Positions 18,983-63,661 of a stretch of 64,000 nt of DNA are shown piece after piece. The number at the start of each line of letters is the position of its first letter. Position 1 is the first letter of the stretch. The notes beneath the pieces were generated by a model, which did not search any database, had not been told where the DNA came from, and saw only the letters and a list, made by a program, of their open reading frames with translations. Source of the stretch: an uncultured Acidimicrobiales bacterium (GTDB taxonomy: Bacteria > Actinomycetota > Acidimicrobiia > Acidimicrobiales > UBA10347); NCBI GenBank assembly GCA_963925805.1, contig CAWUSE010000005.1, forward strand, positions 89,281 to 153,280. Reading direction: 5' to 3'. Both the position numbers and the translations under genes were made by a program.

Positions 18983-18994
18983 CAGCGCTGTTCG

Positions 18995-19068
<74 letters not shown>

Positions 19069-36299: not shown

Positions 36300-37907
36300 C
36301 TACACCCGCCGACCGAATGAGTCGACGGCCTCGTCGGCCATGAGTCGTTCCAGTGTTGCTTCGGGCTTGTCCTCGGAGACCTGGCGGACTCGGAATGCAG
36401 ATTCGAAGAGCACCCAGATTGAGCCATCGGATCGTTCGACAATCTCGACACCGCGGAGTCCGCGAAGGAGAGGTACAGATTCGTCATCGGTCAGTCGGGC
36501 AACCGAGTAGCTGGTAGGCGATAGTTCGACCGGGGCGTTGAATTCGTTTTCGAGACGATGCTTGGCGACCTCGAACTGCAGTGGGCCAACCGCTGCGAAG
36601 ATTGGTGCTTGGTCGCCGACGCCAGGGATTCGCAGAACCTGCACGACACCTTCTTCGTCGAGCTGGGCGACACCAGAACGGAACTGCTTGAACTTACCGG
36701 TGTCCTTGGCTCGGGCGATCATGAAGTGGGTCGGAGCGAACGCCGGCATTGGGCGCCACTGGACTGGCTCGTCTACGTAGACCGCGTCGCCAGGACGAAA
36801 GCCATTGGCATTGATCAGCCCGATCACGTCGCCCGGAAAGGCTTCGTCGAGGGTTTCTCGATCGGACCCTTGAACCGAGTGCACATACTTGGTTGTGACC
36901 GAACGCTTGCTTGGGCCGTGGGTGATCGTCATGCCACGTTCGAATCGACCTGATGCGACTCGCAAGAAAGCGATGCGATCTCGATGGTTCTTATCGGTGT
37001 TGGCTTGCACCTTGAACACATGTCCGCTGAAGGGTGAGTCGATGGGGCGAGGATCATCGTTGATGTCGGTTCGGGCTGGCGGTGATGGCACCAGGTCGAC
37101 AACAGCGTCGAGCAGGTGTCCGACGCCAAAGTTGGTAAGAGCGGAACCAAAGAAGACAGGTGATAGCTCGCCAGCTTCGAACTTTTCACGATTGAAGACT
37201 CGGTCCACCCCATCGAGCAACTCGACGTCTTCAAGCGCTGCGGCAGCGAGCTCAGAATTCATCAATACAGGACTGTCGATCGGGCTTACTTTCTCGGGAG
37301 CCATGGTCGATCCGTGGGCGACGCGAGTGAACTGTACATACTCGTTACGTAGCCGATCGATGACGCCATCGAATGTTGTCGATTCGCCGACAGGCCACGT
37401 GATTGGCGCTGGTTCCAGGATCAGGTCTCGTTCGATTTCGTCGAGCAGGTCCCATGGGTCGCGGCCGGGGCGATCCCATTTATTGATGAACGTCACGATG
37501 GGCACGTCGCGCTCGCGGCATACCTCGAACAGTCGGCGGGTCTGTGGCTCGATGCCTTTGGCTGCGTCGAGAACCATGATGGCTGCATCGGTTGCAGCCA
37601 ATACGCGGAACGTGTCTTCGCTGAAGTCCTTGTGGCCGGGGGTGTCGAGAAGGTTCAGCAAGCAATCGCGATACGGGAAACGCATGACTGTTGAGCTGAT
37701 CGAGATACCGCGCTGTTGTTCGATCTCTTGCCAGTCGCTGGCGGCTGCCTTACCGCCACGGCGAGCGGCGACCGAACCAGCACCAGCGGTGAGAACGCCC
37801 GAGTACAACAGAAACTTCTCGGTCAGTGTGGTCTTGCCAGCATCGGGGTGCGAGATGATGGCGAAGGTCCGCCGTCGGGCGGTTTCTTCGATGATCTGAT
37901 TGCTCAT
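36300..37907 (-). CDS. prfC: peptide chain release factor 3 (start at ATG 37907; the ORF-track extension to 38054 overlaps selO)
   Basis: MSNQIIEETARRRTFAIISHPDAGKTTLTEK (G1), DTPGHKDF (G3), and NKWDR (G4). Confidence 0.93.
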   Translation of the reverse strand: MSNQIIEETARRRTFAIISHPDAGKTTLTEKFLLYSGVLTAGAGSVAARRGGKAAASDWQEIEQQRGISISSTVMRFPYRDCLLNLLDTPGHKDFSEDTFRVLAATDAAIMVLDAAKGIEPQTRRLFEVCRERDVPIVTFINKWDRPGRDPWDLLDEIERDLILEPAPITWPVGESTTFDGVIDRLRNEYVQFTRVAHGSTMAPEKVSPIDSPVLMNSELAAAALEDVELLDGVDRVFNREKFEAGELSPVFFGSALTNFGVGHLLDAVVDLVPSPPARTDINDDPRPIDSPFSGHVFKVQANTDKNHRDRIAFLRVASGRFERGMTITHGPSKRSVTTKYVHSVQGSDRETLDEAFPGDVIGLINANGFRPGDAVYVDEPVQWRPMPAFAPTHFMIARAKDTGKFKQFRSGVAQLDEEGVVQVLRIPGVGDQAPIFAAVGPLQFEVAKHRLENEFNAPVELSPTSYSVARLTDDESVPLLRGLRGVEIVERSDGSIWVLFESAFRVRQVSEDKPEATLERLMADEAVDSFGRRV

Positions 37908-37938
37908 GAGCGTGCGTTTCTTGGGGTCGAATGCCCAG

Positions 37939-39573
37939 CTAGGAACTGCAGGACAACATGGAACAGCCTGCCCGTTCTCGCGCCCATTCCGGGCGCTTGG
38001 TGAAGAACTCGACTTCGTGTTCTGGTTGTTCATCGTAGGGATAACGCAGCACATCGAGCAGTTGATTTACTGCTGAGAAGTCGCCCTGGTCGACCTTGTC
38101 GATGGCCAACTGTGCCATCCAGTTCCGAAGCACGTACTTGGGGTTCACGGCATCCATGGCCAGCTTGCGTTCTTCGGTGGAGCGGCCGTCAACGCCACAC
38201 CGGTCAGCCCATGCACGAAGCCACTCACTCATTTCTTCGACCACACGCGCGGTCGGCTGGGCATACCAGGCGTCGGCAACTGGTTGCACCAGGTCGTAGT
38301 CGCTGAGATCTTCGGCGTTCTCGACGTCGACCTGGGCCAGGTTTCGGTGAAAGATAGTCATGTCAGTTTCGACGATCTGCAGCACCCGGCCCAGCTCGCC
38401 GAACAGAGCATTGTCGTCGTCTCCAGCAAAGCCGATAAAACCGAGGCGCTCTGCCATCATCGCGTTCCAGCCGTTGCCGAACTCGTCGGCATAGGAGTCG
38501 AGTGCCTCTTGTAATGGTTCGACGTTGTCGCCATAAAGCGGAGCGATTGCATTCGCAAGTTGCACGAGATTCCAATGTGCCATCGAAGGCTGATTTCCAT
38601 AGCGGTAACGACGGGCTTCGGCATCTGTGGTGTTGGGCGTCCAGTCAGGGTCGAACCCTTCAAGCCAGCCGTATGGTCCGTAATCAATGGTCAGGCCCAG
38701 AATCGACATGTTGTCGGTGTTCATCACCCCGTGAACAAAACCGATGCGCATCCATTCGACGATCATCTCTGCGGTGGTGCGAACGATTTCAGCAAACCAG
38801 TCAGTCACAACGTCGAGGGGCTGGTCGTCATCGCCTTCGACCAGGTCGGGGAAATCGGTACGTATCGTCCAACTGACGAGTTGGGCTAACTGATCCAACT
38901 CATCTCGTGATGCAAACAGCTCGAAGTTTCCGAAGCGGACAAAGGACGGGCTGACTCGACAGACGACGGCGCCGAGCTCGTCGGCAGGGTTACCGTCGTA
39001 GAACATGTCGCGCATGACCTGGTCGCCGGTCAGTGTGAGGCTCAGCGCTCGGGTTGTTGGGACGCCTAGATGGAACATGGCTTCGCTGCACAAGAATTCG
39101 CGCACAGAGGACCGCATCACGGCGTATCCGTCGCCGCGACGTGAATACGGTGTTGGTCCCGAACCTTTGAGTTGCAGTGTTTGGTGGCCGTTGTCGGTGG
39201 TCAGGACCTCGCCAAGGGCAATAGCTCGCCCATCGCCGAGCTGGCCGGCCCAGTTGCCGAACTGATGCCCGCCGTAACACATCGCATAGGGATCCATATC
39301 CGGGGTGATCAGATTGCCGGTCACCAGATGAGCGAACGCGGGGGTCTCTGCTTGCTCGTCGTCGATACCTAGCATTTCAGCCACCTCGGTCGAGTACACA
39401 ACGAGCTGGGGTGTGGTCGCACGTGTGGGCATGACGCGACTGAAACATGCGCCTGTTACATGGCGGCGGACATTGTCAATCTGAGTGTCGGCAGGAAGAT
39501 CACGGGTGAATCGATTGGTGAATACGAGACCAAATAGGTTGTCAGCAGTGTTGTCCACAGTTTCTCTGTCCAC
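37939..39573 (-). CDS. selO: protein adenylyl/UMPyl-transferase SelO/YdiU
   Basis: UPF0061/SelO signatures: YGGHQFGNWAGQLGDGRA and the pseudokinase-fold motifs HGVMNTDNMSILGLTIDYGP. The C-terminus ends in Cys-Ser-Ser. Confidence 0.9.
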   Translation of the reverse strand: MDRETVDNTADNLFGLVFTNRFTRDLPADTQIDNVRRHVTGACFSRVMPTRATTPQLVVYSTEVAEMLGIDDEQAETPAFAHLVTGNLITPDMDPYAMCYGGHQFGNWAGQLGDGRAIALGEVLTTDNGHQTLQLKGSGPTPYSRRGDGYAVMRSSVREFLCSEAMFHLGVPTTRALSLTLTGDQVMRDMFYDGNPADELGAVVCRVSPSFVRFGNFELFASRDELDQLAQLVSWTIRTDFPDLVEGDDDQPLDVVTDWFAEIVRTTAEMIVEWMRIGFVHGVMNTDNMSILGLTIDYGPYGWLEGFDPDWTPNTTDAEARRYRYGNQPSMAHWNLVQLANAIAPLYGDNVEPLQEALDSYADEFGNGWNAMMAERLGFIGFAGDDDNALFGELGRVLQIVETDMTIFHRNLAQVDVENAEDLSDYDLVQPVADAWYAQPTARVVEEMSEWLRAWADRCGVDGRSTEERKLAMDAVNPKYVLRNWMAQLAIDKVDQGDFSAVNQLLDVLRYPYDEQPEHEVEFFTKRPEWARERAGCSMLSCSS

Positions 39574-53354: not shown

Positions 53355-53359
53355 AACAG

Positions 53360-53430
53360 AGCGGGTGAGGGTAATCGAAACCCCGTATTCAGCTTGGGAA
53401 GCTGATGTTCTACCATTGAACTACACCCGC
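53360..53430 (-). tRNA. tRNA-Gly (anticodon CCC)
   Basis: I folded a 71-nt cloverleaf by hand. Acceptor GCGGGTG/CACCCGC, anticodon loop TTCCCAA, T-loop TTCGATT. No encoded CCA. Confidence 0.88.
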
Positions 53431-56375: not shown

Positions 56376-57368
56376 ATGATTTTGGCTGGAACGAGTCGAG
56401 GGGTTTTTGCGATCGATCACGACGGCGCCCACTCGGTGCTCGAGAGTCGCGGTGTGCGTGACCTGATCGATATCAACGGCCGGATATTTGCTGGCACAGG
56501 TGCTGGGCTCTTCGTGTCCGACAACGGGGGCGATACCTGGTCCTGTGTTGGGCTCGCTGAGTACGAGGTGTGGCAGGTACGGGCTGCACCGGACGGCACG
56601 CTCTACGCCGGCACCCAACCCGCCAGTTTGTTTCGCAGTACCGATGGCGGTGATAGCTGGACCGAAATTGAATCGTTCGCGAAGGTGCCCGAAGCCTCGA
56701 CCTGGGGAATCCCGCTTGATCCACCCTTGCCAGGTAGAGCTCGTGCCATCGTGGTCGACCGCGAAGACCCCAACAAGATTTGGGTCGGTGTCGAAGTTGG
56801 CGGCATCATGCGCACCACCGATGGCGGAGTGACCTGGACGCTTGATCGGCCAGGCGACAACCCTGATCTACACATGATGTATGCCCATCCCGCCGAGCCC
56901 GCCATGTTGTTCGCGTCGACCGGCTACGGGCGTGAGGATCACATCGCCGAGGAAGCTGAGGGAAATGCAGGTGTTTTCCGTAGCGACGACCACGGCCAGA
57001 CCTGGAACTATGCCTGGTCTGGCGTTACGCCCCGTTATTCACGGCCGATGTGCATCGAGGTTCGCGAACCTTTTAGCCTGACTGTCGCTAGCGCTCCCAC
57101 CGCATTTAGTAACTTCGCCGATGATGGTGGGGCCCAAGCCATGCTCTTTCGCAGCGATGATCACGGCGCAAGTTGGCGGTCGTTATGTGACCAGGCCCAC
57201 TCGCCGAGCGCGGCCAATATTCATGGTCTCATGGTCGACCCCGACGAAGTGGGCGGCGTGATCGTGGGCACCGATACCGGCGAGGTATGGCGCGTTAGCA
57301 ACGACGCGGTGTGGACCGAGGTCGTGACTGGTTTGCCGGCTGTGTTGTCGCTTAGCGCCACCCAGTAG
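56376..57368 (+). CDS. BNR/Asp-box repeat beta-propeller protein (start ATG 56376)
   Basis: Five S-x-D-x-G-x-T-W Asp-boxes: SDNGGDTWS, STDGGDSWT, TTDGGVTWT, SDDHGQTWN and SDDHGASWR. I see no obvious signal peptide. Confidence 0.7.
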   Translation: MILAGTSRGVFAIDHDGAHSVLESRGVRDLIDINGRIFAGTGAGLFVSDNGGDTWSCVGLAEYEVWQVRAAPDGTLYAGTQPASLFRSTDGGDSWTEIESFAKVPEASTWGIPLDPPLPGRARAIVVDREDPNKIWVGVEVGGIMRTTDGGVTWTLDRPGDNPDLHMMYAHPAEPAMLFASTGYGREDHIAEEAEGNAGVFRSDDHGQTWNYAWSGVTPRYSRPMCIEVREPFSLTVASAPTAFSNFADDGGAQAMLFRSDDHGASWRSLCDQAHSPSAANIHGLMVDPDEVGGVIVGTDTGEVWRVSNDAVWTEVVTGLPAVLSLSATQ

Positions 57369-60036: not shown

Positions 60037-61125
60037 ATGACTGACACCATGAGTGGCCCTGCTGAGTTTGACAAGACCCGCGCCAAGCTCTTTCAGGCGA
60101 ACATCGTTGGAATTATGAACGGCGGGGCGTTGGCGCTGATGATCAGTTTGGGCCACAAGACAGGGCTCTTCGATTCGATGGACGGCAAGCCGGCTCGCAC
60201 TGCCGCTGAGATTGCCACCGACGCGGGATTGCATGAGCGTTATGTGCGCGAGTGGCTTAGTGCTATGGCGTGCGGTGCCATTGTTGACTACGACGTCGAT
60301 GCGCAGACTTTTGCTCTACCGGTCGAACATGCCGGGCTACTCACCCGCCGAGCTGGGCCGCTCAACCTGAGTACGCAGTGCCAGTACGTGGCGTTGCTTG
60401 GCGAGGTCGAAGATGAGATCGTCGAAGCTTTTCGTAGCGGAGGAGGCGTGCCCTATGACCGCTACCCCCGTTTCCAAGCGCTCATGGCTGAGTCGAGTGG
60501 TCAGCGGTATGAACGAACGTTGATCGCTCAGGTCGTGCCGATTTTGCCGGTGGCCCAAGCACTGGAAGCTGGCATTGATGTTGGCGACGTTGGTTGTGGC
60601 AGTGGCAAAGCGATGCGTATCTTCGCAGCAGCGTTTCCAGCTAGTCGATTCGTCGGCTTCGACATCAGCGAGGATGCCATTGCGGTTGCCAGGGCGGAAG
60701 CAGCGGCGGCCGGCCTGACGAATCTCAGCTTCGAGGTGGCCGATGCTGCGGCACTCGATCAGGTAGACCGTTTTGACTTCCTGACGACGTTCGATGCAAT
60801 TCATGACCAGGCTCAGCCCGACACCGTGTTGGCCGGTATCTACCGTATGTTGCGACCCGGTGGGACGTATCTGTGTGTCGAGCCGAAGTCATCGAGTGAA
60901 CTGGCCGACAACATCGACGAGCCAATGTCAGCGTTTATGTACAGCGTGTCAACGATGCACTGCATGACAGTATCGATGGCCTACGGCGGCGAAGGGCTTG
61001 GCACTGCATGGGGCCACCAGACCGCGGTGGAACGGCTGACGCTTGCTGGCTTCGCTGACATCGAGGTGACCGGTGTGCGCGATGACCGCAGCAACAGCTA
61101 CTTCCTATCTACCAAACCCGGCTGA
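60037..61125 (+). CDS. class I SAM-dependent methyltransferase with an N-terminal winged-helix-like domain (Rv2258c-like)
   Basis: SAM motif I DVGCGSGKA with acidic motif II GFDIS. The N-terminal roughly 150 aa resemble the dimerisation/wHTH domain of Rv2258c-type methyltransferases. Confidence 0.8.
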   Translation: MTDTMSGPAEFDKTRAKLFQANIVGIMNGGALALMISLGHKTGLFDSMDGKPARTAAEIATDAGLHERYVREWLSAMACGAIVDYDVDAQTFALPVEHAGLLTRRAGPLNLSTQCQYVALLGEVEDEIVEAFRSGGGVPYDRYPRFQALMAESSGQRYERTLIAQVVPILPVAQALEAGIDVGDVGCGSGKAMRIFAAAFPASRFVGFDISEDAIAVARAEAAAAGLTNLSFEVADAAALDQVDRFDFLTTFDAIHDQAQPDTVLAGIYRMLRPGGTYLCVEPKSSSELADNIDEPMSAFMYSVSTMHCMTVSMAYGGEGLGTAWGHQTAVERLTLAGFADIEVTGVRDDRSNSYFLSTKPG

Positions 61126-61400
61126 GGGCTAGTCATCAAATGGTGTAGACCAACTCGGAATGGCCTCGAACTCGATCAAAACGTTGGCTACCACCCTCGT
61201 GGTGTGGTGGGTTCGCTCAACGCCACGGCTCCAGCCCATGAGCACATCGCTGATTCCGTCCTTGTCAGCCAGTGCTCTCAGCCGAGCTTCGGTGTCTCGA
61301 TCTACCGTCTGTTTTCTCGGGGATCTCGCTGGGCGGCCCGGCGGATTCGACCGCCGTCGTCCAAGTCGCTACTGTCGAGATAACGAAGCTTGGGGGAGCG

Positions 61401-62285
61401 ATGAGCGCACCTGTTCGATATATCGACCGTACTCGCGACTATTATTTGGGTCAGGGGTACGACAAACCGTACGAGTGGGCGCATCACGACGACGCTCCGT
61501 TTACCCCCTTGATTAAGCCGCTGGCCGAGTCTCGGGTTGCGATTGTGTCGACGTCTGACATCGCAATTAAAAAGCCGAATGGGGATCGCGATCGCGACAA
61601 CGATTTCGCCGTTGGCAATGTCTATTCACTTCCGTCTGATACACCAATCGATCTGCTCTATTCGCGCCAAGAACACTATGACCAGCATGCGACGACTCTC
61701 GACGACGTGAATGCGTACTACCCGGTGAGTCGACTAGGTGAACTCGTGGAACGGGGCCGGATCGGTGAGCTTGCCCCACGGTTTCATGGCGTATACACGG
61801 GCTATTCGAAACGTAAGACAGCCGAGGTAGACGCACCCGAAGTCCTGCGACGATGTATCGAAGACGAGGTCGACGTGGCGGTGATGACGCCGGTTTGACC
61901 GGTCTGTCACCAGACCGTGAGTCTGGTTGCACGTCATCTCGAAGCGAACGGCATTCCCACCGTCATGTTCGGCACGGCCAAGGACATCGTTGAGCATTGT
62001 GGAGTTGCCCGGTTCGTCTTCCTTGACTTTCCGCTCGGCAATTCGTGCGGTCGTAGCTTTGACGCCGACCATCAGCATCAGACCTTGGAACTCGGCATGC
62101 ACCTACTAGAGAACGCAACGGCGCCGCGCACCACCGTGCAGGCCAACGATATCTGGAGTGATGACGACGATTGGAAACGGCTGATCTTCACCGACGATCA
62201 GCCCTTCCTCAGCGGCGAGGCGCTCGAAAATTGGATGGCCGCCAAACAGCGCTACCGCGACAAGAAGGCTGCTGGAGAACTGTGA
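61401..62285 (+). CDS. GrdB-family (glycine/sarcosine/betaine/D-proline reductase B-like) putative selenoprotein; in-frame TGA at 61896-61898 read as Sec
   Basis: ORF-track ORFs 61272-61898 and 61917-62285 share one frame and are separated only by the TGA. The junction reads VAVMTPV-U-PVCHQTVSLVARHLEANGIPTV (U-x-x-C), resembling the GrdB Sec region as I recall it. A hairpin lies at SECIS distance. The second ORF has no independent RBS or ATG. Confidence 0.65.
61899..61926 (+). promoter_or_regulatory. candidate bacterial SECIS stem-loop(s) directly 3' of the in-frame TGA
   Basis: There are two mutually exclusive hairpins. The first is CGGTCTG-tcac-CAGACCG (61900-61917). The second is CCAGAC-cgtga-GTCTGG (61910-61926), which starts 11 nt after the UGA and has G and U in its loop. 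Confidence 0.45.
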
Positions 62286-62533
62286 ACGACGACGTAACAT
62301 CTCGAACTCTGACGGTCTTCTCGTCGCCGCTCTGTGGGCCGTGCGAGCAAATGAAGGCGTGGCTCAGGGAACGTGGCTATTCGTTCATCGTGCGAGATGT
62401 GATGATGGACGAAGAGGCTGGTGAGCTCTTGGAGTCGCACGGCATTCGCACGACGCCTGCCCTACAGGTTGGCGATCGTTTTGTCGTTGGATTAGACCTT
62501 GCGGCGATGGAAGAGGCTCTGGCCGACTGGTAG
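62282..62533 (+). CDS. glutaredoxin/NrdH-like small redox protein with a CGPC active site (GTG start overlapping the upstream stop)
   Basis: 83 aa with LTVFSSPLCGPCEQMK, a cis-Pro motif TTPAL, and GLDL. A GTGA overlap joins it to the GrdB-like gene. The ORF-track start at 62171 lies inside the upstream gene. Confidence 0.75.
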   Translation: MNDDVTSRTLTVFSSPLCGPCEQMKAWLRERGYSFIVRDVMMDEEAGELLESHGIRTTPALQVGDRFVVGLDLAAMEEALADW

Positions 62534-62539
62534 CACCGC

Positions 62540-63661
62540 TCATGACTCAACCCGCGAGTCAGGCGTTATTTCTCTGATGGTGAAGACTGCTGCTGCGGCA
62601 CCGAGCATCAGGCCTGAGCTGACTAGTCCGAGCGCCATGGTTCCAGAGTTGTCCAGCAGCAGGCCTCCGATGAGAGGCCCCGCGACTCGTCCAATCGCCA
62701 TCATTGCTTGAGCATCGCCTGCCCGTTCTTCGGGGTAGACAGACGCTTGCGCTAACACTTCGAAGACGCCCGGTATTGCCATCCAATAGAAGAAGCCCCA
62801 CGCAGTCACTGCGATGAAGAACAAGACGCTGGTAAACGCAGTAGCCACAAAGAATGCGCAGAGTGCTGCCAGCGCCATCCATGGGCTGGGGATAGTACGG
62901 CGACCAGTCCAGCCTGCGGCAGGGATGCTGACGATGGCGTTCGCTGTATAGCCAATGGCTACCGCCGAGGCTGTGAGCCCAAGCTCGCGAGCTGCAATCG
63001 TCACGCCGAACTGAATTACGGCCGAGCCACCGAGACTGAACATGGTCAGTGCAAGCAAGACAATTCGTGCTTGGATCACTGCGCCGTGGCGTGACTTCGG
63101 CTGCTGCTTCACACCGAGTGGAACACCACGAGCGAACATCAATGGGATCAGAGGCAAGAGCGCCAACAGCACGAATAGACCAGCCATGCCGAACGCATTG
63201 ATGACTATGGCGACAGTGGGTGTGGCGCCAACAGCGATGACCGGGCCTACGACCGCGACTCGGGCCATGGTGTTCTTTTGGCCGAACGCGTTTGCCCACG
63301 CGAACCAGGTGATTGTGCCGATGGCTAGGCCACTGCCAAAACGCAACCCAAGCAATAGTGGGATGGGTGGCAGTAACGCCGATAACGCGTTGACAACAAT
63401 AGCGAGGACCAGAGCACTCACTAACACGCGGCGACTCGCTTGCAGGAACCTGCCAGCTGCCCATGACGCAATTGCGAAACCGCCGAGCTGACACATGCCA
63501 ATCAATGATGCGACAGCTAAACCAACGTCATAGTCGTTGGCAACCTCGGGGATCAAAAACGGTGTGCTGACCAGGACAACTGTCGAAAAGCCGAGTGCCA
63601 GCAGCATCCCAGCCGAACGACGTATGTCGAGAGTGTTGCCCAGTCGAAACGGAATCTGCAT
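62540..63661 (-). CDS. MFS transporter
   Basis: 373 aa with about 11-12 TM helices and an MFS-like loop GRFLQASRRV between TM2 and TM3. Confidence 0.78.
   Translation of the reverse strand: MQIPFRLGNTLDIRRSAGMLLALGFSTVVLVSTPFLIPEVANDYDVGLAVASLIGMCQLGGFAIASWAAGRFLQASRRVLVSALVLAIVVNALSALLPPIPLLLGLRFGSGLAIGTITWFAWANAFGQKNTMARVAVVGPVIAVGATPTVAIVINAFGMAGLFVLLALLPLIPLMFARGVPLGVKQQPKSRHGAVIQARIVLLALTMFSLGGSAVIQFGVTIAARELGLTASAVAIGYTANAIVSIPAAGWTGRRTIPSPWMALAALCAFFVATAFTSVLFFIAVTAWGFFYWMAIPGVFEVLAQASVYPEERAGDAQAMMAIGRVAGPLIGGLLLDNSGTMALGLVSSGLMLGAAAAVFTIREITPDSRVES

Follow-up and report, generated by a model that had tools for sequence, protein, structure and literature searches.

A predicted PrdB-like selenoprotein gene with an in-frame TGA, followed directly by a gene for a small glutaredoxin (Grx)-like protein, was identified in the 64-kb stretch of DNA analyzed here (the window). 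Taken as a whole, the evidence makes it likely that the gene encodes a stand-alone PrdB-like selenoprotein that acts as a reductase and is recycled by the Grx-like protein. Coordinates of the features discussed are listed in Table 1.

Table 1. Features at the selenoprotein locus, in window coordinates
Feature	Position	Strand	Evidence or remark
SAM-dependent methyltransferase, Rv2258c-like winged-HTH N-domain	60037..61125	+	Pfam
GGGGGAG, possible ribosome-binding site	61392..61398	+	2 nt 5' of ATG 61401; read from sequence
Predicted PrdB-like (GrdB/PrdB superfamily) selenoprotein CDS	61401..62285	+	294 residues; ATG 61401 to TGA stop 62283-62285; codon 166 TGA read through
In-frame TGA, predicted selenocysteine U166	61896..61898	+	TGA/Cys-codon pattern in homologous loci; alignment with PrdB Sec151
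TGT, Cys169, presumed resolving Cys of U-P-V-C	61905..61907	+	Invariant in 95 aligned sequences
SECIS-like hairpin	61909..61927	+	Arms 61909-61915 (ACCAGAC) and 61921-61927 (GUCUGGU); loop CGUGA, 61916-61920
Glutaredoxin-like redoxin, C-G-P-C, 83 aa	62282..62533	+	Pfam Glutaredoxin, E = 1.1e-12
MFS transporter, convergent	62540..63661	-	Pfam MFS_1

A single reading frame continues through an in-frame TGA

The 495 nt from ATG 61401 to the TGA at 61896-61898 make up 165 codons in one frame, and beyond this TGA the frame stays open as far as the TGA stop at 62283-62285. The first-pass annotation had read the two open reading frames called here as one frame split by the TGA, and translation yields such a frame, of 294 codons. 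Its further observations also agree with our results: six sense codons (CCG GTC TGT CAC CAG ACC) separate the TGA from the nominal GTG start at 61917, this GTG (61917-61919) falls in the loop CGUGA of a hairpin, and the N-termini of relatives match a true start at the ATG that follows GGGGGAG. Because the spacing of GGGGGAG is short, the start is supported chiefly by these N-termini. Since the gene itself terminates with TGA, this codon serves as an ordinary stop in the source genome. On read-through, the junction would be DVAVMTPV-U-PVCHQTVSLVARHLEANGIPTVMFGT with the immediate motif MTPV-U-PVCHQT; the predicted Sec-spanning peptide is MTPV-U-PVCHQTVSLVAR, and the extended motif is MTPVuPVCHQTVSLVARHLEANGIPTV...DFPLGN.

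The closest relatives are 81-95% identical, and their gene-called proteins stop at the same codon as the window TGA. These products have 165 aa, begin with MS..VRYIDRTRDYY, and end with ..TPV. Full-length Cys homologues have 293-294 aa and are 55-66% identical to the window protein across 99-100% of the length.

Codon 166 alternates between TGA and cysteine codons

A peptide scan of a collection holding one genome per species gave at least about 600 matching stretches. Among 80 homologous genome loci, codon 166 is TGA in 70 and TGC or TGT in 10. The loci that conserve the TGA span Acidimicrobiia, Alpha-, Beta-, and Deltaproteobacteria, Methylomirabilota/Rokubacteria, and Chloroflexi; the nearest one (L001) belongs to an Acidimicrobiales MAG (CAVQRR01) and encodes a protein 87% identical to that of the window. 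Carriers of the gene also include Bordetella bronchiseptica, Haematobacter massiliensis, and Roseomonas haemaphysalidis. Judged by sequence comparison, a TGA at the same codon in so many loci of several phyla is far beyond chance. This codon pattern and the conserved hairpin described below agree with the earlier proposal of a U-x-x-C selenocysteine enzyme. Alignment with Cys- and Sec-containing homologues, which had been suggested as a check on that proposal, places Cys and not a gap at position 166: the column aligned with U166 is an invariant Cys in 94 Cys-form homologues. Across the 95 aligned sequences, 32 residues are invariant, including C/U166, P167, C169, H170, Q171, R178, E181, and the DFPLG motif.

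Substitutions 3' of the TGA favor the third codon position, as they do in the 5' part. For L001, counts at the three codon positions are 10/4/36 downstream of the TGA and 5/4/32 upstream. The family stop codon is kept 128-131 codons past the Sec position. Positions 61401-62285 thus very probably encode one Sec-containing polypeptide.

Genes for Sec insertion were sought in the same material. ARAGORN and Rfam found no tRNA-Sec in the 64-kb window, only tRNA-Ile and tRNA-Gly, and tblastn with E. coli queries found no SelA or SelD homologue there, a result that carries little weight at 64 kb. When E. coli SelA, SelB, and SelD were searched against the window and all loci, only translational GTPases were returned; the SelB-like match in the window was rejected, as NCBIfam identifies it as prfC (RF3). 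A GC3-based scan for further in-frame-TGA genes in the window failed to recover the known gene because the window is only 56% G+C, and a list of window TGAs with a nearby Cys codon was mostly noise.

A hairpin downstream of the TGA is conserved in the TGA forms

The hairpin has a 7-bp stem that begins 10 nt 3' of the UGA and is present in the minimum free energy fold. Over 71 TGA-form sequences, the paired positions are complementary in 97.8% of cells, compared with 14-30% in slid controls, and compensatory changes occur at two pairs (C-G to U-A in 11 sequences and G-C to A-U in 2). Third-position entropy is 0-0.25 bits within the hairpin and 0.7-1.9 bits in the flanking sequence, and near-frozen synonymous sites are confined to the hairpin and to TGA forms. 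In the Cys forms, ATC AGC disrupts the stem and the hairpin is lost. The single-sequence fold of the SECIS region has z = -0.9, a stability that is not unusual; because this fold energy is not significant, the case for the hairpin rests on comparative evidence. In Rfam, neither a SECIS model nor any other matches the hairpin, whether the gathering threshold or E <= 10 is applied, and a promoter and terminator scan gave nothing above chance.

The protein belongs to the GrdB/PrdB superfamily and is nearest to PrdB

The first-pass annotation had assigned the protein to the GrdB family. Membership in the superfamily is supported by Pfam GRDB (PF07355), although marginally (23.6 bits against a gathering cut-off of 22, residues 17-163 on positions 199-345 of the 347-position model), and PrdB proved to be nearer than GrdB. 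The best NCBIfam model is PrdB (TIGR04483; 89.9 bits, E = 1.7e-25), whose equivalog cut-off of 300 is not reached. Among the models for glycine/sarcosine/betaine reductase protein B (TIGR01917, NF040794, NF040795, and TIGR01918), scores are 34-44 bits, short of cut-offs of 602-800, and the broad subfamily model gives 36.2 bits against a cut-off of 65.45. The PrdB, GrdF, GrdH, and GrdB models each produce one continuous match that spans residue 166. For the GrdB-type models, only the C-terminal half is matched, by residues 13-216 of the 294-residue protein.

A parallel to the Sec region of clostridial GrdB, drawn in the first-pass annotation, is real. In a MAFFT alignment, U166 of the window protein occupies the same column as Sec151 of the RefSeq-annotated PrdB of P. 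acidaminophilum, and the aligned motifs (FTAG-U-GTCH in PrdB, MTPV-U-PVCH in the window protein) are both followed by E..GIPT[VI].

An AF2 model of a Cys homologue (P0001, 66% identical to the window protein) has a pLDDT of 89; in it, helix 166-181 starts with the motif, straight after strand 158-162. We infer that Sec166 and Cys169 (U-P-V-C-H-Q) would form a redox-active center at the helix N-terminus. PDB sequence searches with the single protein and with the 95-sequence profile returned only chance-level matches (DegV, E = 0.013; arenavirus glycoprotein, E = 0.38). A Foldseek search of the P0001 model against the PDB returned no match with E < 0.01 or TM > 0.35; the model shows only a vague Rossmann- or flavodoxin-like resemblance.

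A glutaredoxin-like gene is the conserved neighbor

The open reading frames between positions 57000 and 64000 encode SDRs, a quinone oxidoreductase, the methyltransferase, the Grx-like protein, the MFS transporter, and the end of an acyl-CoA dehydrogenase. Neighborhoods of the 80 loci were compared after overlapping open reading frames had been resolved by conservation score, and the three immediate neighbors in the window were searched for with blast and tblastn. The identities that the first-pass annotation had given these three neighbors are all supported by Pfam; only the Grx-like gene is a conserved partner of the PrdB-like gene. The methyltransferase and the MFS transporter were rejected as functional partners: in none of the 80 loci does a homologue of the former lie within 5.5 kb of the gene, and the latter has no homologue in these loci. 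Even the 87%-identical L001 is without both. Remaining neighbors differ by locus and include CoA-transferase III, a luciferase-like monooxygenase, an O-methyltransferase, TauD, and acyl-CoA dehydrogenase.

The GTG start of the window's Grx-like gene overlaps the selenoprotein stop (GTGA), and a 4-nt overlap of this kind is often found in the family loci. The best NCBIfam match of the protein is YruB-type and lies under its cut-off. A same-strand Grx-like homologue is located directly 3' of the gene in 39 of the 80 loci, among them that of Bordetella bronchiseptica and every one of the 10 Cys-form loci, and four extra loci (L081, L083, L087, and L088) also have an adjoining downstream Grx-like gene. 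In B. bronchiseptica, the two genes form an operon with a CoA-transferase gene. In four Methylomirabilota/Rokubacteria loci (L046, L047, L053, and L054), the Grx itself has UxxC: its first Cys codon is replaced by TGA, and a conserved hairpin lies after it. The partner is missing from 41 of the 80 loci, the more distant L060-L080 without exception, and is therefore not obligatory family-wide.

We searched for the genes that accompany canonical reductases, using PrdA, PrdD, PrdE, and the racemase of the L. salivarius cluster, in which prdA-prdB-prdD-prdE-racemase is seen, as tblastn queries. Neither the 64-kb window nor the family loci, about 88 in number, yielded a PrdA, PrdD, PrdE, or proline racemase (E <= 0.01). 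No GRDA or Gly_reductase family occurs in six Pfam-labelled homologous contexts, and no grdA, grdC, grdD, or grdE is present among the open reading frames that adjoin the window gene. The absence of adjacent grd genes, already remarked on in the first-pass annotation, is thus borne out by the ORF and Pfam labels and extends to the prd queries. With no grd or prd partner nearby, the gene would not encode a classical glycine or proline reductase; on the grounds of sequence, the window protein is not a canonical D-proline or glycine reductase.

The family was described in marine metagenomes

A selenoprotein family named proline reductase PrdB was reported from the Sargasso Sea in 2005 (Zhang, Fomenko and Gladyshev, PMC1088965) and from the GOS metagenomes in 2008 (Zhang and Gladyshev, PMC2398784). 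Its published motif is LVP[SLN]uPVCHQTVSLVARHLE.N.IPTV...DFPLGN (compare uPVCHQTVSLVARHLE), and the entries for the family give a UxxC motif and pfam07355 (PMC1088965, PMC2398784). The family counts of the GOS survey list 235 Sec forms and 110 Cys forms (PMC2398784), and in the Sargasso Sea data the family ranks third in abundance among selenoprotein families. In their grouping of selenoproteins, Zhang and Gladyshev place it among the thiol-dependent redox selenoproteins. Under "Proline reductase," the GOS supplement contains uPVCHQ 86 times and the Sargasso supplement 14 times, and one published read of the same family is labelled GrdB. After the TGA, the published AACY01202822 reads TGACCCGTCTGCCACCAGACCGTGAGTCTGGTTGCC and the window reads TGACCGGTCTGTCACCAGACCGTGAGTCTGGTTGCA, with the same SECIS-forming DNA. 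Because the same sequences and SECIS were published in 2005 and 2008, the window gene is a further member of a known family and not a new one. The surveys' family counts and their one-line description of D-proline reductase make no mention of a Grx partner or of the absence of PrdA.

Proposed mechanism

On the comparative evidence, the ribosome would decode UGA 61896 as selenocysteine, with a SelB-type factor bound to the predicted hairpin at 61909-61927. By analogy with PrdB, GrdB, and GrdH, Sec166 would then attack an electrophilic atom of a small-molecule substrate, and Cys169 would resolve the selenium adduct, freeing the reduced product and leaving a Se-S bond. Gene linkage suggests that this bond is reduced by the downstream, translationally coupled CGPC Grx-like protein, which may itself be recharged by a cellular NADPH-dependent reductase. 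That the enzyme is a reductase recycled by its Grx-like partner seems reasonably probable; that the reaction is a pyruvoyl-independent cleavage of a C-X bond is a more tentative proposal.

With no PrdA/GrdE-type pyruvoyl subunit beside the gene, neither D-proline nor glycine is a probable substrate. The substrate more likely has a good leaving group already or is an oxidized sulfur or selenium compound. In betaine reductase GrdH, trimethylamine serves as the leaving group as it stands, so that no pyruvoyl group is needed, and the enzyme provides a precedent for the pyruvoyl-free chemistry proposed here. Speculatively, the PrdB-like protein and its coupled Grx may form a self-contained two-component selenoenzyme for pyruvoyl-independent C-N+, C-S+, or similar cleavage of a carboxylate or CoA-thioester metabolite, with Sec used in both partners in some lineages. 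If so, the label "proline reductase" has been attached for about 20 years to a widespread system of aerobic soil and marine bacteria that carries out another reaction.

Alternative explanations

Two alternatives concern the decoding of the TGA. The locus could be a pseudogene, or a split gene with two products (61401-61898 and 61917-62285), as the gene callers have it when they divide the window gene and its relatives at the TGA, and Sec machinery is absent from the 64-kb window. This is barely credible given the same-codon TGA in 70 of 80 loci across phyla, the same-frame coding evolution, and a hairpin that co-varies with the TGA and is lost in Cys forms; moreover, the sole start codons of the downstream part lie inside the hairpin, and PVCHQT, which would go untranslated if the gene were split, is the family's most conserved motif. 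Downstream hairpins can in general stimulate read-through, and the UGA might be read without selenium, by Cys or Trp insertion or by programmed suppression, with the hairpin as stimulator. This would also fit with no Sec machinery having been seen for the source genome in the 64 kb searched. We regard it as very improbable, since UGA/Cys exchange at a catalytic UxxC site whose counterpart in PrdB is an experimentally established Sec counts as a classical selenoprotein signature, the spacing and size of the hairpin suit what is generally known of bacterial SECIS elements such as that of fdhF, and the same published sequences passed bSECIS-based selenoprotein screens.

The other alternatives accept selenocysteine and differ over function. 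The protein could be a genuine B subunit of D-proline (or glycine, sarcosine, or betaine) reductase, partnered by a PrdA/GrdE-type pyruvoyl proprotein from another part of the source genome. Its homology to PrdB extends over about 205 residues with the Sec, Cys, and His of UxxCH in register, and databases and the family entries of the 2005 and 2008 surveys name it PrdB. Identity to true PrdB is only about 29%, however, the score of 89.9 bits is far from the cut-off of 300 and those with GrdB, GrdF, and GrdH are also far off, and there are extra conserved segments at both termini. The lack of PrdA, PrdD, PrdE, and racemase extends from the window to about 88 loci of many phyla, most carriers belong to aerobic lineages, and a Grx, not PrdC, is the partner that is conserved, all of which make this improbable. 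A general thiol/selenol-disulfide oxidoreductase or peroxidase-like antioxidant, in which UxxC and Grx exchange electrons and no C-X bond of a metabolite is cleaved, is rather unlikely, although several observations favor it. The modelled UxxC sits at a helix N-terminus, as it does in redox proteins with a thioredoxin fold, the conserved Grx partner has UxxC itself in some loci, the other neighbors vary as expected of a self-contained redox or detoxification module, and the grouping by Zhang and Gladyshev points the same way. The predicted fold, however, is that of the PrdB/GrdB family and not thioredoxin, with no PDB match at E < 0.01. Invariant residues Y7, Y15, Y24, D94, D102, D144, R178, E181, D195, R204, D209, W252, and W258 lie outside the motif, and such polar and aromatic positions suggest a specific substrate pocket. 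To our knowledge, the characterized relatives PrdB, GrdB, GrdF, and GrdH are all C-N-cleaving reductases, which also argues against an antioxidant.

Implications

The window gene should be annotated as one Sec-containing CDS (61401-62285, transl_except at 61896) instead of two open reading frames. D-proline reductase is an unsuitable name for it, and the family name "proline reductase" is probably wrong. By the survey counts, the family is among the more abundant selenoprotein families in surface-ocean metagenomes. The conserved Grx partner offers a concrete two-protein system for reconstitution, and culturable bacteria with Cys-form copies, Bordetella bronchiseptica among them, open the family to genetics.

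Comparison with known systems

The SECIS of the E. coli fdhF type is a stem-loop inside the coding sequence, about 10-11 nt past the UGA, with a short apical loop containing G and U. The window hairpin also lies within the coding sequence, and its position and size fit; here it is conserved in UGA forms only, and its sequence is family-specific and matches no Rfam model.

Thioredoxin-system genes lie inside grd operons, and trxA and trxB reduce GrdA. The window pair resembles this arrangement in that a small CxxC redoxin is encoded beside the selenoprotein and, by inference, a selenide-sulfide would be re-reduced at every turnover. It differs in that the redoxin of the window family has a glutaredoxin fold with thioredoxin-like CGPC or CAPC, would act straight on the B-type protein without a GrdA-like carrier, and has no linked reductase gene. 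The marine family of 2005 and 2008 shares uPVCHQ[TS], VSLVARHLE..GIPTV, and DFPLGN with the window protein; published members are marine surface reads, whereas the window copy comes from an Acidimicrobiia-like genome.

GrdB, GrdF, and GrdH share the UxxC Sec motif, and the C-terminal half of these 430-residue proteins is homologous to the window protein, which is without the N-terminal 200 residues of GrdB. A 2026 review gives the GrdB motif as UxxCxxC, as opposed to UxxCHQ with no third Cys in the window protein. The core shared with PrdB (TIGR04483; Clostridium/Acetoanaerobium sticklandii, C. difficile, and Peptoclostridium acidaminophilum) is about 29% identical over about 215 residues; U151 and C154 align with U166 and C169, the next residue is His, and an E..GIPT[VI] helix-strand follows. 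Unlike PrdB, the window protein is extended at the N-terminus by a conserved segment (VRYIDRTRDYYL.QGY.KPY.WA) and at the C-terminus by a tail of about 50 residues, and in place of nearby PrdA, PrdC, PrdD, PrdE, and racemase, its gene has a Grx partner.

Reading frame and in-frame TGA

The ORF list divides the PrdB-like gene into two pieces in the same frame, separated by a TGA and six sense codons, and the read-through junction is DVAVMTPV-U-PVCHQTVSLVARHLEANGIPTV. The first-pass annotation had joined these pieces into one frame with an in-frame TGA, started it at ATG 61401, and noted that the second piece's nominal GTG falls within a hairpin. Every detail of the frame was verified in the sequence, and the GTG maps to the hairpin loop. 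The nearest relatives in protein searches (81–95% identity) are annotated as 165-aa proteins that start with MS..VRYIDRTRDYY and end exactly at ..TPV, and their N-termini support the ATG start.

In a protein search, the read-through product matched 6320 relatives at E <= 0.001; a second group of these is full-length (293–294 aa, 55–66% identity) with Cys at the aligned position (PVCPVCHQT). A genome scan using one genome per species yielded at least 597 matching stretches, and the best 80 loci (L001–L080) were retained. The aligned codon is TGA in 70 of these 80 and TGC or TGT in 10. Within this set, TGA forms occur in Acidimicrobiia, Alpha-, Beta-, Gamma-, and Deltaproteobacteria, Methylomirabilota/Rokubacteria, Chloroflexi, and others, the closest being from Acidimicrobiia (87% identical). 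When the window was compared to nine relatives, differences 3' of the TGA were as strongly concentrated at third codon positions as those 5' of it (for L001, 10/4/36 by codon position downstream and 5/4/32 upstream), and the stop codon was kept 128–131 codons past the Sec codon, indicating that the downstream part is translated in the same frame. TGA also ends the gene itself and hence acts as an ordinary stop elsewhere in the genome. The earlier assignment of selenocysteine in a U-x-x-C motif therefore holds, given the exchange of Cys and TGA at one column and a hairpin coupled to TGA; the suggested alignment with homologs placed Cys or Sec at this position. Comparison shows a single polypeptide whose gene includes a Sec codon and a UGA-coupled SECIS, a PrdB-homologous UxxC motif, and a genetically linked glutaredoxin.

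Two PrdB-like paralogs are found on one Rokuibacteriota contig (SuPICHQT and VuPVCHQT), both with the TGA and the same hairpin. No SelA or SelD homolog and no tRNA-Sec were found in the 64-kb window, whose two tRNA genes are tRNA-Ile(GAT) and tRNA-Gly(CCC). The only SelB-like match in the window, a weak tblastn match, is explained by prfC (peptide chain release factor 3).

Locations of features in the window and in homologous loci
Feature	Location	Strand	Remarks
PrdB-like CDS	61401-62285	+	Single 294-codon frame; only break TGA 61896-61898; stop TGA 62283-62285
Pieces in ORF list	61272-61898; 61917-62285	+	Second has nominal GTG start at 61917
SECIS-like hairpin arms	61909-61915; 61921-61927	+
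Glutaredoxin-like gene	62282-62533	+	Overlap GTGA 62282-62285
Methyltransferase	60037-61125	+	Rv2258c-like winged-HTH and class I SAM methyltransferase domain
Terminator-like hairpin	61290-61307	+	Weak; followed by T-rich tail
prfC (609 bits) adjoining YdiU/SelO-family protein adenylyltransferase gene (557 bits)	36300-38054; 37939-39573	-
tRNA-Ile(GAT)	18994-19068	-
tRNA-Gly(CCC)	53359-53430	-
Glutaredoxin-like gene with in-frame TGA	L046:5743-5980; L047:6725-6965; L053:6876-7120; L054:6881-7110		Downstream of PrdB-like gene
PrdB-like paralogs	L051:1140; L051:6484
Bordetella bronchiseptica operon	L083/L084, 8001-10365
CoA-transferase family III	~11 loci		Adjacent, co-directional; includes the B. 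bronchiseptica operon
Luciferase-like monooxygenase	~7 loci
O-methyltransferase	5 loci

A conserved hairpin downstream of the TGA

All TGA forms contain CACCAGACCGTGAGTCTGGT or a close variant, which forms a 7-bp stem (A14-U32 to C20-G26, numbered from the U of UGA) with a CGUGA loop. In a 71-sequence alignment of TGA forms, standard pairs occupy 97.8% of stem cells; the C15-G31 pair becomes U-A in 11 sequences and U-G in three, and A-U takes the place of G18-C28 in two. Shifting the 3' partners by 1–3 columns reduced pairing to 14%–30%. Third-codon-position entropy is 0–0.25 bits in the five hairpin-building codons versus 0.7–1.9 bits in flanking codons. The same positions are variable in the 10 Cys forms, where ACC ATC AGC CTG abolishes the stem. 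Such coupling of hairpin and TGA is the signature of a bacterial SECIS. Its 10-nt spacing from the UGA and G/U-containing loop fit the Escherichia coli fdhF element. The evidence is comparative, since the single-sequence folding energy of the region is unexceptional (z = -0.9) and no Rfam family matches the hairpin. The present analysis adds a SECIS for this family that is documented with covariation.

Genomic neighborhood

No homolog of the window methyltransferase or MFS transporter lies near any of the 80 loci. In 39 of the 80, which all belong to the nearer relatives (L001–L059) and include every one of the 10 Cys-form loci, a co-directional glutaredoxin-like homolog lies directly 3'; it also occurs in the extra family loci L081, L083/L084 (B. 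bronchiseptica), L087, and L088. In many cases, as in the window, its start and the selenoprotein stop share 4 nt. The glutaredoxin active site reads C-[AGVP..]-P-C. The downstream glutaredoxin is the conserved partner of the PrdB-like gene. In four Methylomirabilota/Rokubacteria loci the first active-site Cys codon of the glutaredoxin is TGA (U-G-P-C or U-R-P-C), with a conserved hairpin, CCUGCGGUCCGCAGG, about 29 nt after it. The partner in these loci is predicted to be a UxxC selenoprotein itself, and the arrangement looks like a two-selenoprotein operon.

Other genes recur beside the pair, none consistently (Table), including a TauD-type dioxygenase, acyl-CoA dehydrogenase, enoyl-CoA hydratase, and AMP-ligase. 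In B. bronchiseptica, a Cys-form prdB-like gene, grx, and CoA-transferase III form an overlapping operon, with one TctC-family gene between it and the pertussis toxin (ptx)/ptl type IV secretion locus, and more TctC, CoA-transferase, rhodanese, and IclR genes downstream. Six marine Alphaproteobacteria/Rhodospirillaceae loci (L012, L019, L023, L025, L026, and L028) have the PrdB-like gene without glutaredoxin, and the next gene is a TauD-family dioxygenase or an amidohydrolase (D-aminoacylase-like) with a D-serine-dehydratase/alanine-racemase-fold gene. Such neighbors hint at a tie to D-amino-acid or amino-acid-derivative metabolism.

The window methyltransferase has weak, sub-threshold NCBIfam matches to methyltransferase selenoprotein families (MTase/UXPK-star, ArsM-AhpD UU), which reflect the shared methyltransferase domain only. 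The terminator-like hairpin in the 275-nt gap between it and the selenoprotein gene fits separate transcription units, yet is no better than chance in shuffles.

Relationship to known selenoproteins and proposed mechanism

In metagenomic surveys, "proline reductase PrdB" (UxxC, pfam07355) ranks third in abundance among the selenoprotein families of the Sargasso Sea data (42 genes; PMC1088965) and has 235 Sec and 110 Cys sequences in GOS (PMC2398784). Both supplements hold the same DNA after the TGA as the window gene, and the string uPVCHQ occurs 14 and 86 times in them, respectively. The sole Sargasso sequence labeled "glycine reductase selenoprotein B" (AACY01202822) reads LVPNuPVCHQTVSLVARHLEANKIPTV, and belongs to the same stand-alone PrdB-like family, not to true GrdB. 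Reviews published in 2022 and 2026 still name just D-proline reductase (TIGR04483) and GrdB, with no separate entry for the stand-alone form, and our literature search found no paper characterizing it. The window gene adds an Acidimicrobiia-like member to a selenoprotein family that was already known in 2005; the family itself is not new.

The protein marginally passes Pfam GRDB (23.6 bits, cut-off 22). The best NCBIfam match is PrdB (89.9 bits, cut-off 300), followed by GrdF, GrdH, GrdB, and broad selenoprotein-B models, each under its cut-off and each matching one stretch that spans residue 166. RefSeq-annotated true prdB genes are ~29% identical (tblastn, plasmid records). The parallel to the clostridial GrdB Sec region, drawn in the first-pass annotation, is real, because U166 and U151 of Peptoclostridium acidaminophilum PrdB share a column in the MAFFT alignment (VDVAVMTPV-U-PVCHQT...LEANGIPTV versus VDAAVFTAG-U-GTCHRS...LEESGIPTI). 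Ligilactobacillus salivarius PrdA, PrdD, PrdE, and racemase had zero tblastn matches in the window or any family locus, and six Pfam-labeled homologous contexts contain no GRDA or Gly_reductase families. These absences and the sub-cut-off scores indicate a PrdB and GrdB homolog outside the D-proline reductase and glycine reductase equivalogs; "proline reductase" is probably the wrong name for the family. The finding was real and its interpretation correct, including that this is not a classical glycine reductase.

No solved structure was detectable by sequence or profile search. In an AF2 model of a Cys homolog 66% identical to the window protein (pLDDT 89, pTM 0.89), the C/U-x-x-C motif lies at the N-terminus of helix 166–181, right after strand 158–162, a predicted placement typical of redox-active CxxC centers. 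Foldseek of this model against the PDB gave no match at E < 0.01. Thirty-two residues are invariant in 95 sequences, including U/C166, P167, C169, H170, Q171, R178, E181, D195, R204, D209-P-L-G213, W252, and W258, which argues for a defined substrate pocket, not a generic redoxin.

In the mechanism we propose, Sec166 would act as the nucleophile and Cys169 would resolve the Se-adduct, leaving a Se-S bond that the glutaredoxin-like CGPC protein could reduce before being recharged by a cellular NADPH-dependent system. Thioredoxin genes have a similar role in grd operons. As no pyruvoyl subunit is linked, a substrate without need for imine activation seems more likely, with the betaine reductase GrdH as a precedent; alternatively, it may be an oxidized sulfur or selenium compound. 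The canonical prd cluster of L. salivarius comprises prdA, a small ORF, prdB, prdD, prdE, and proline racemase; selB lies close by. Compared to PrdB, the window protein is extended by a conserved segment at the N-terminus and a tail of ~50 residues at the C-terminus.
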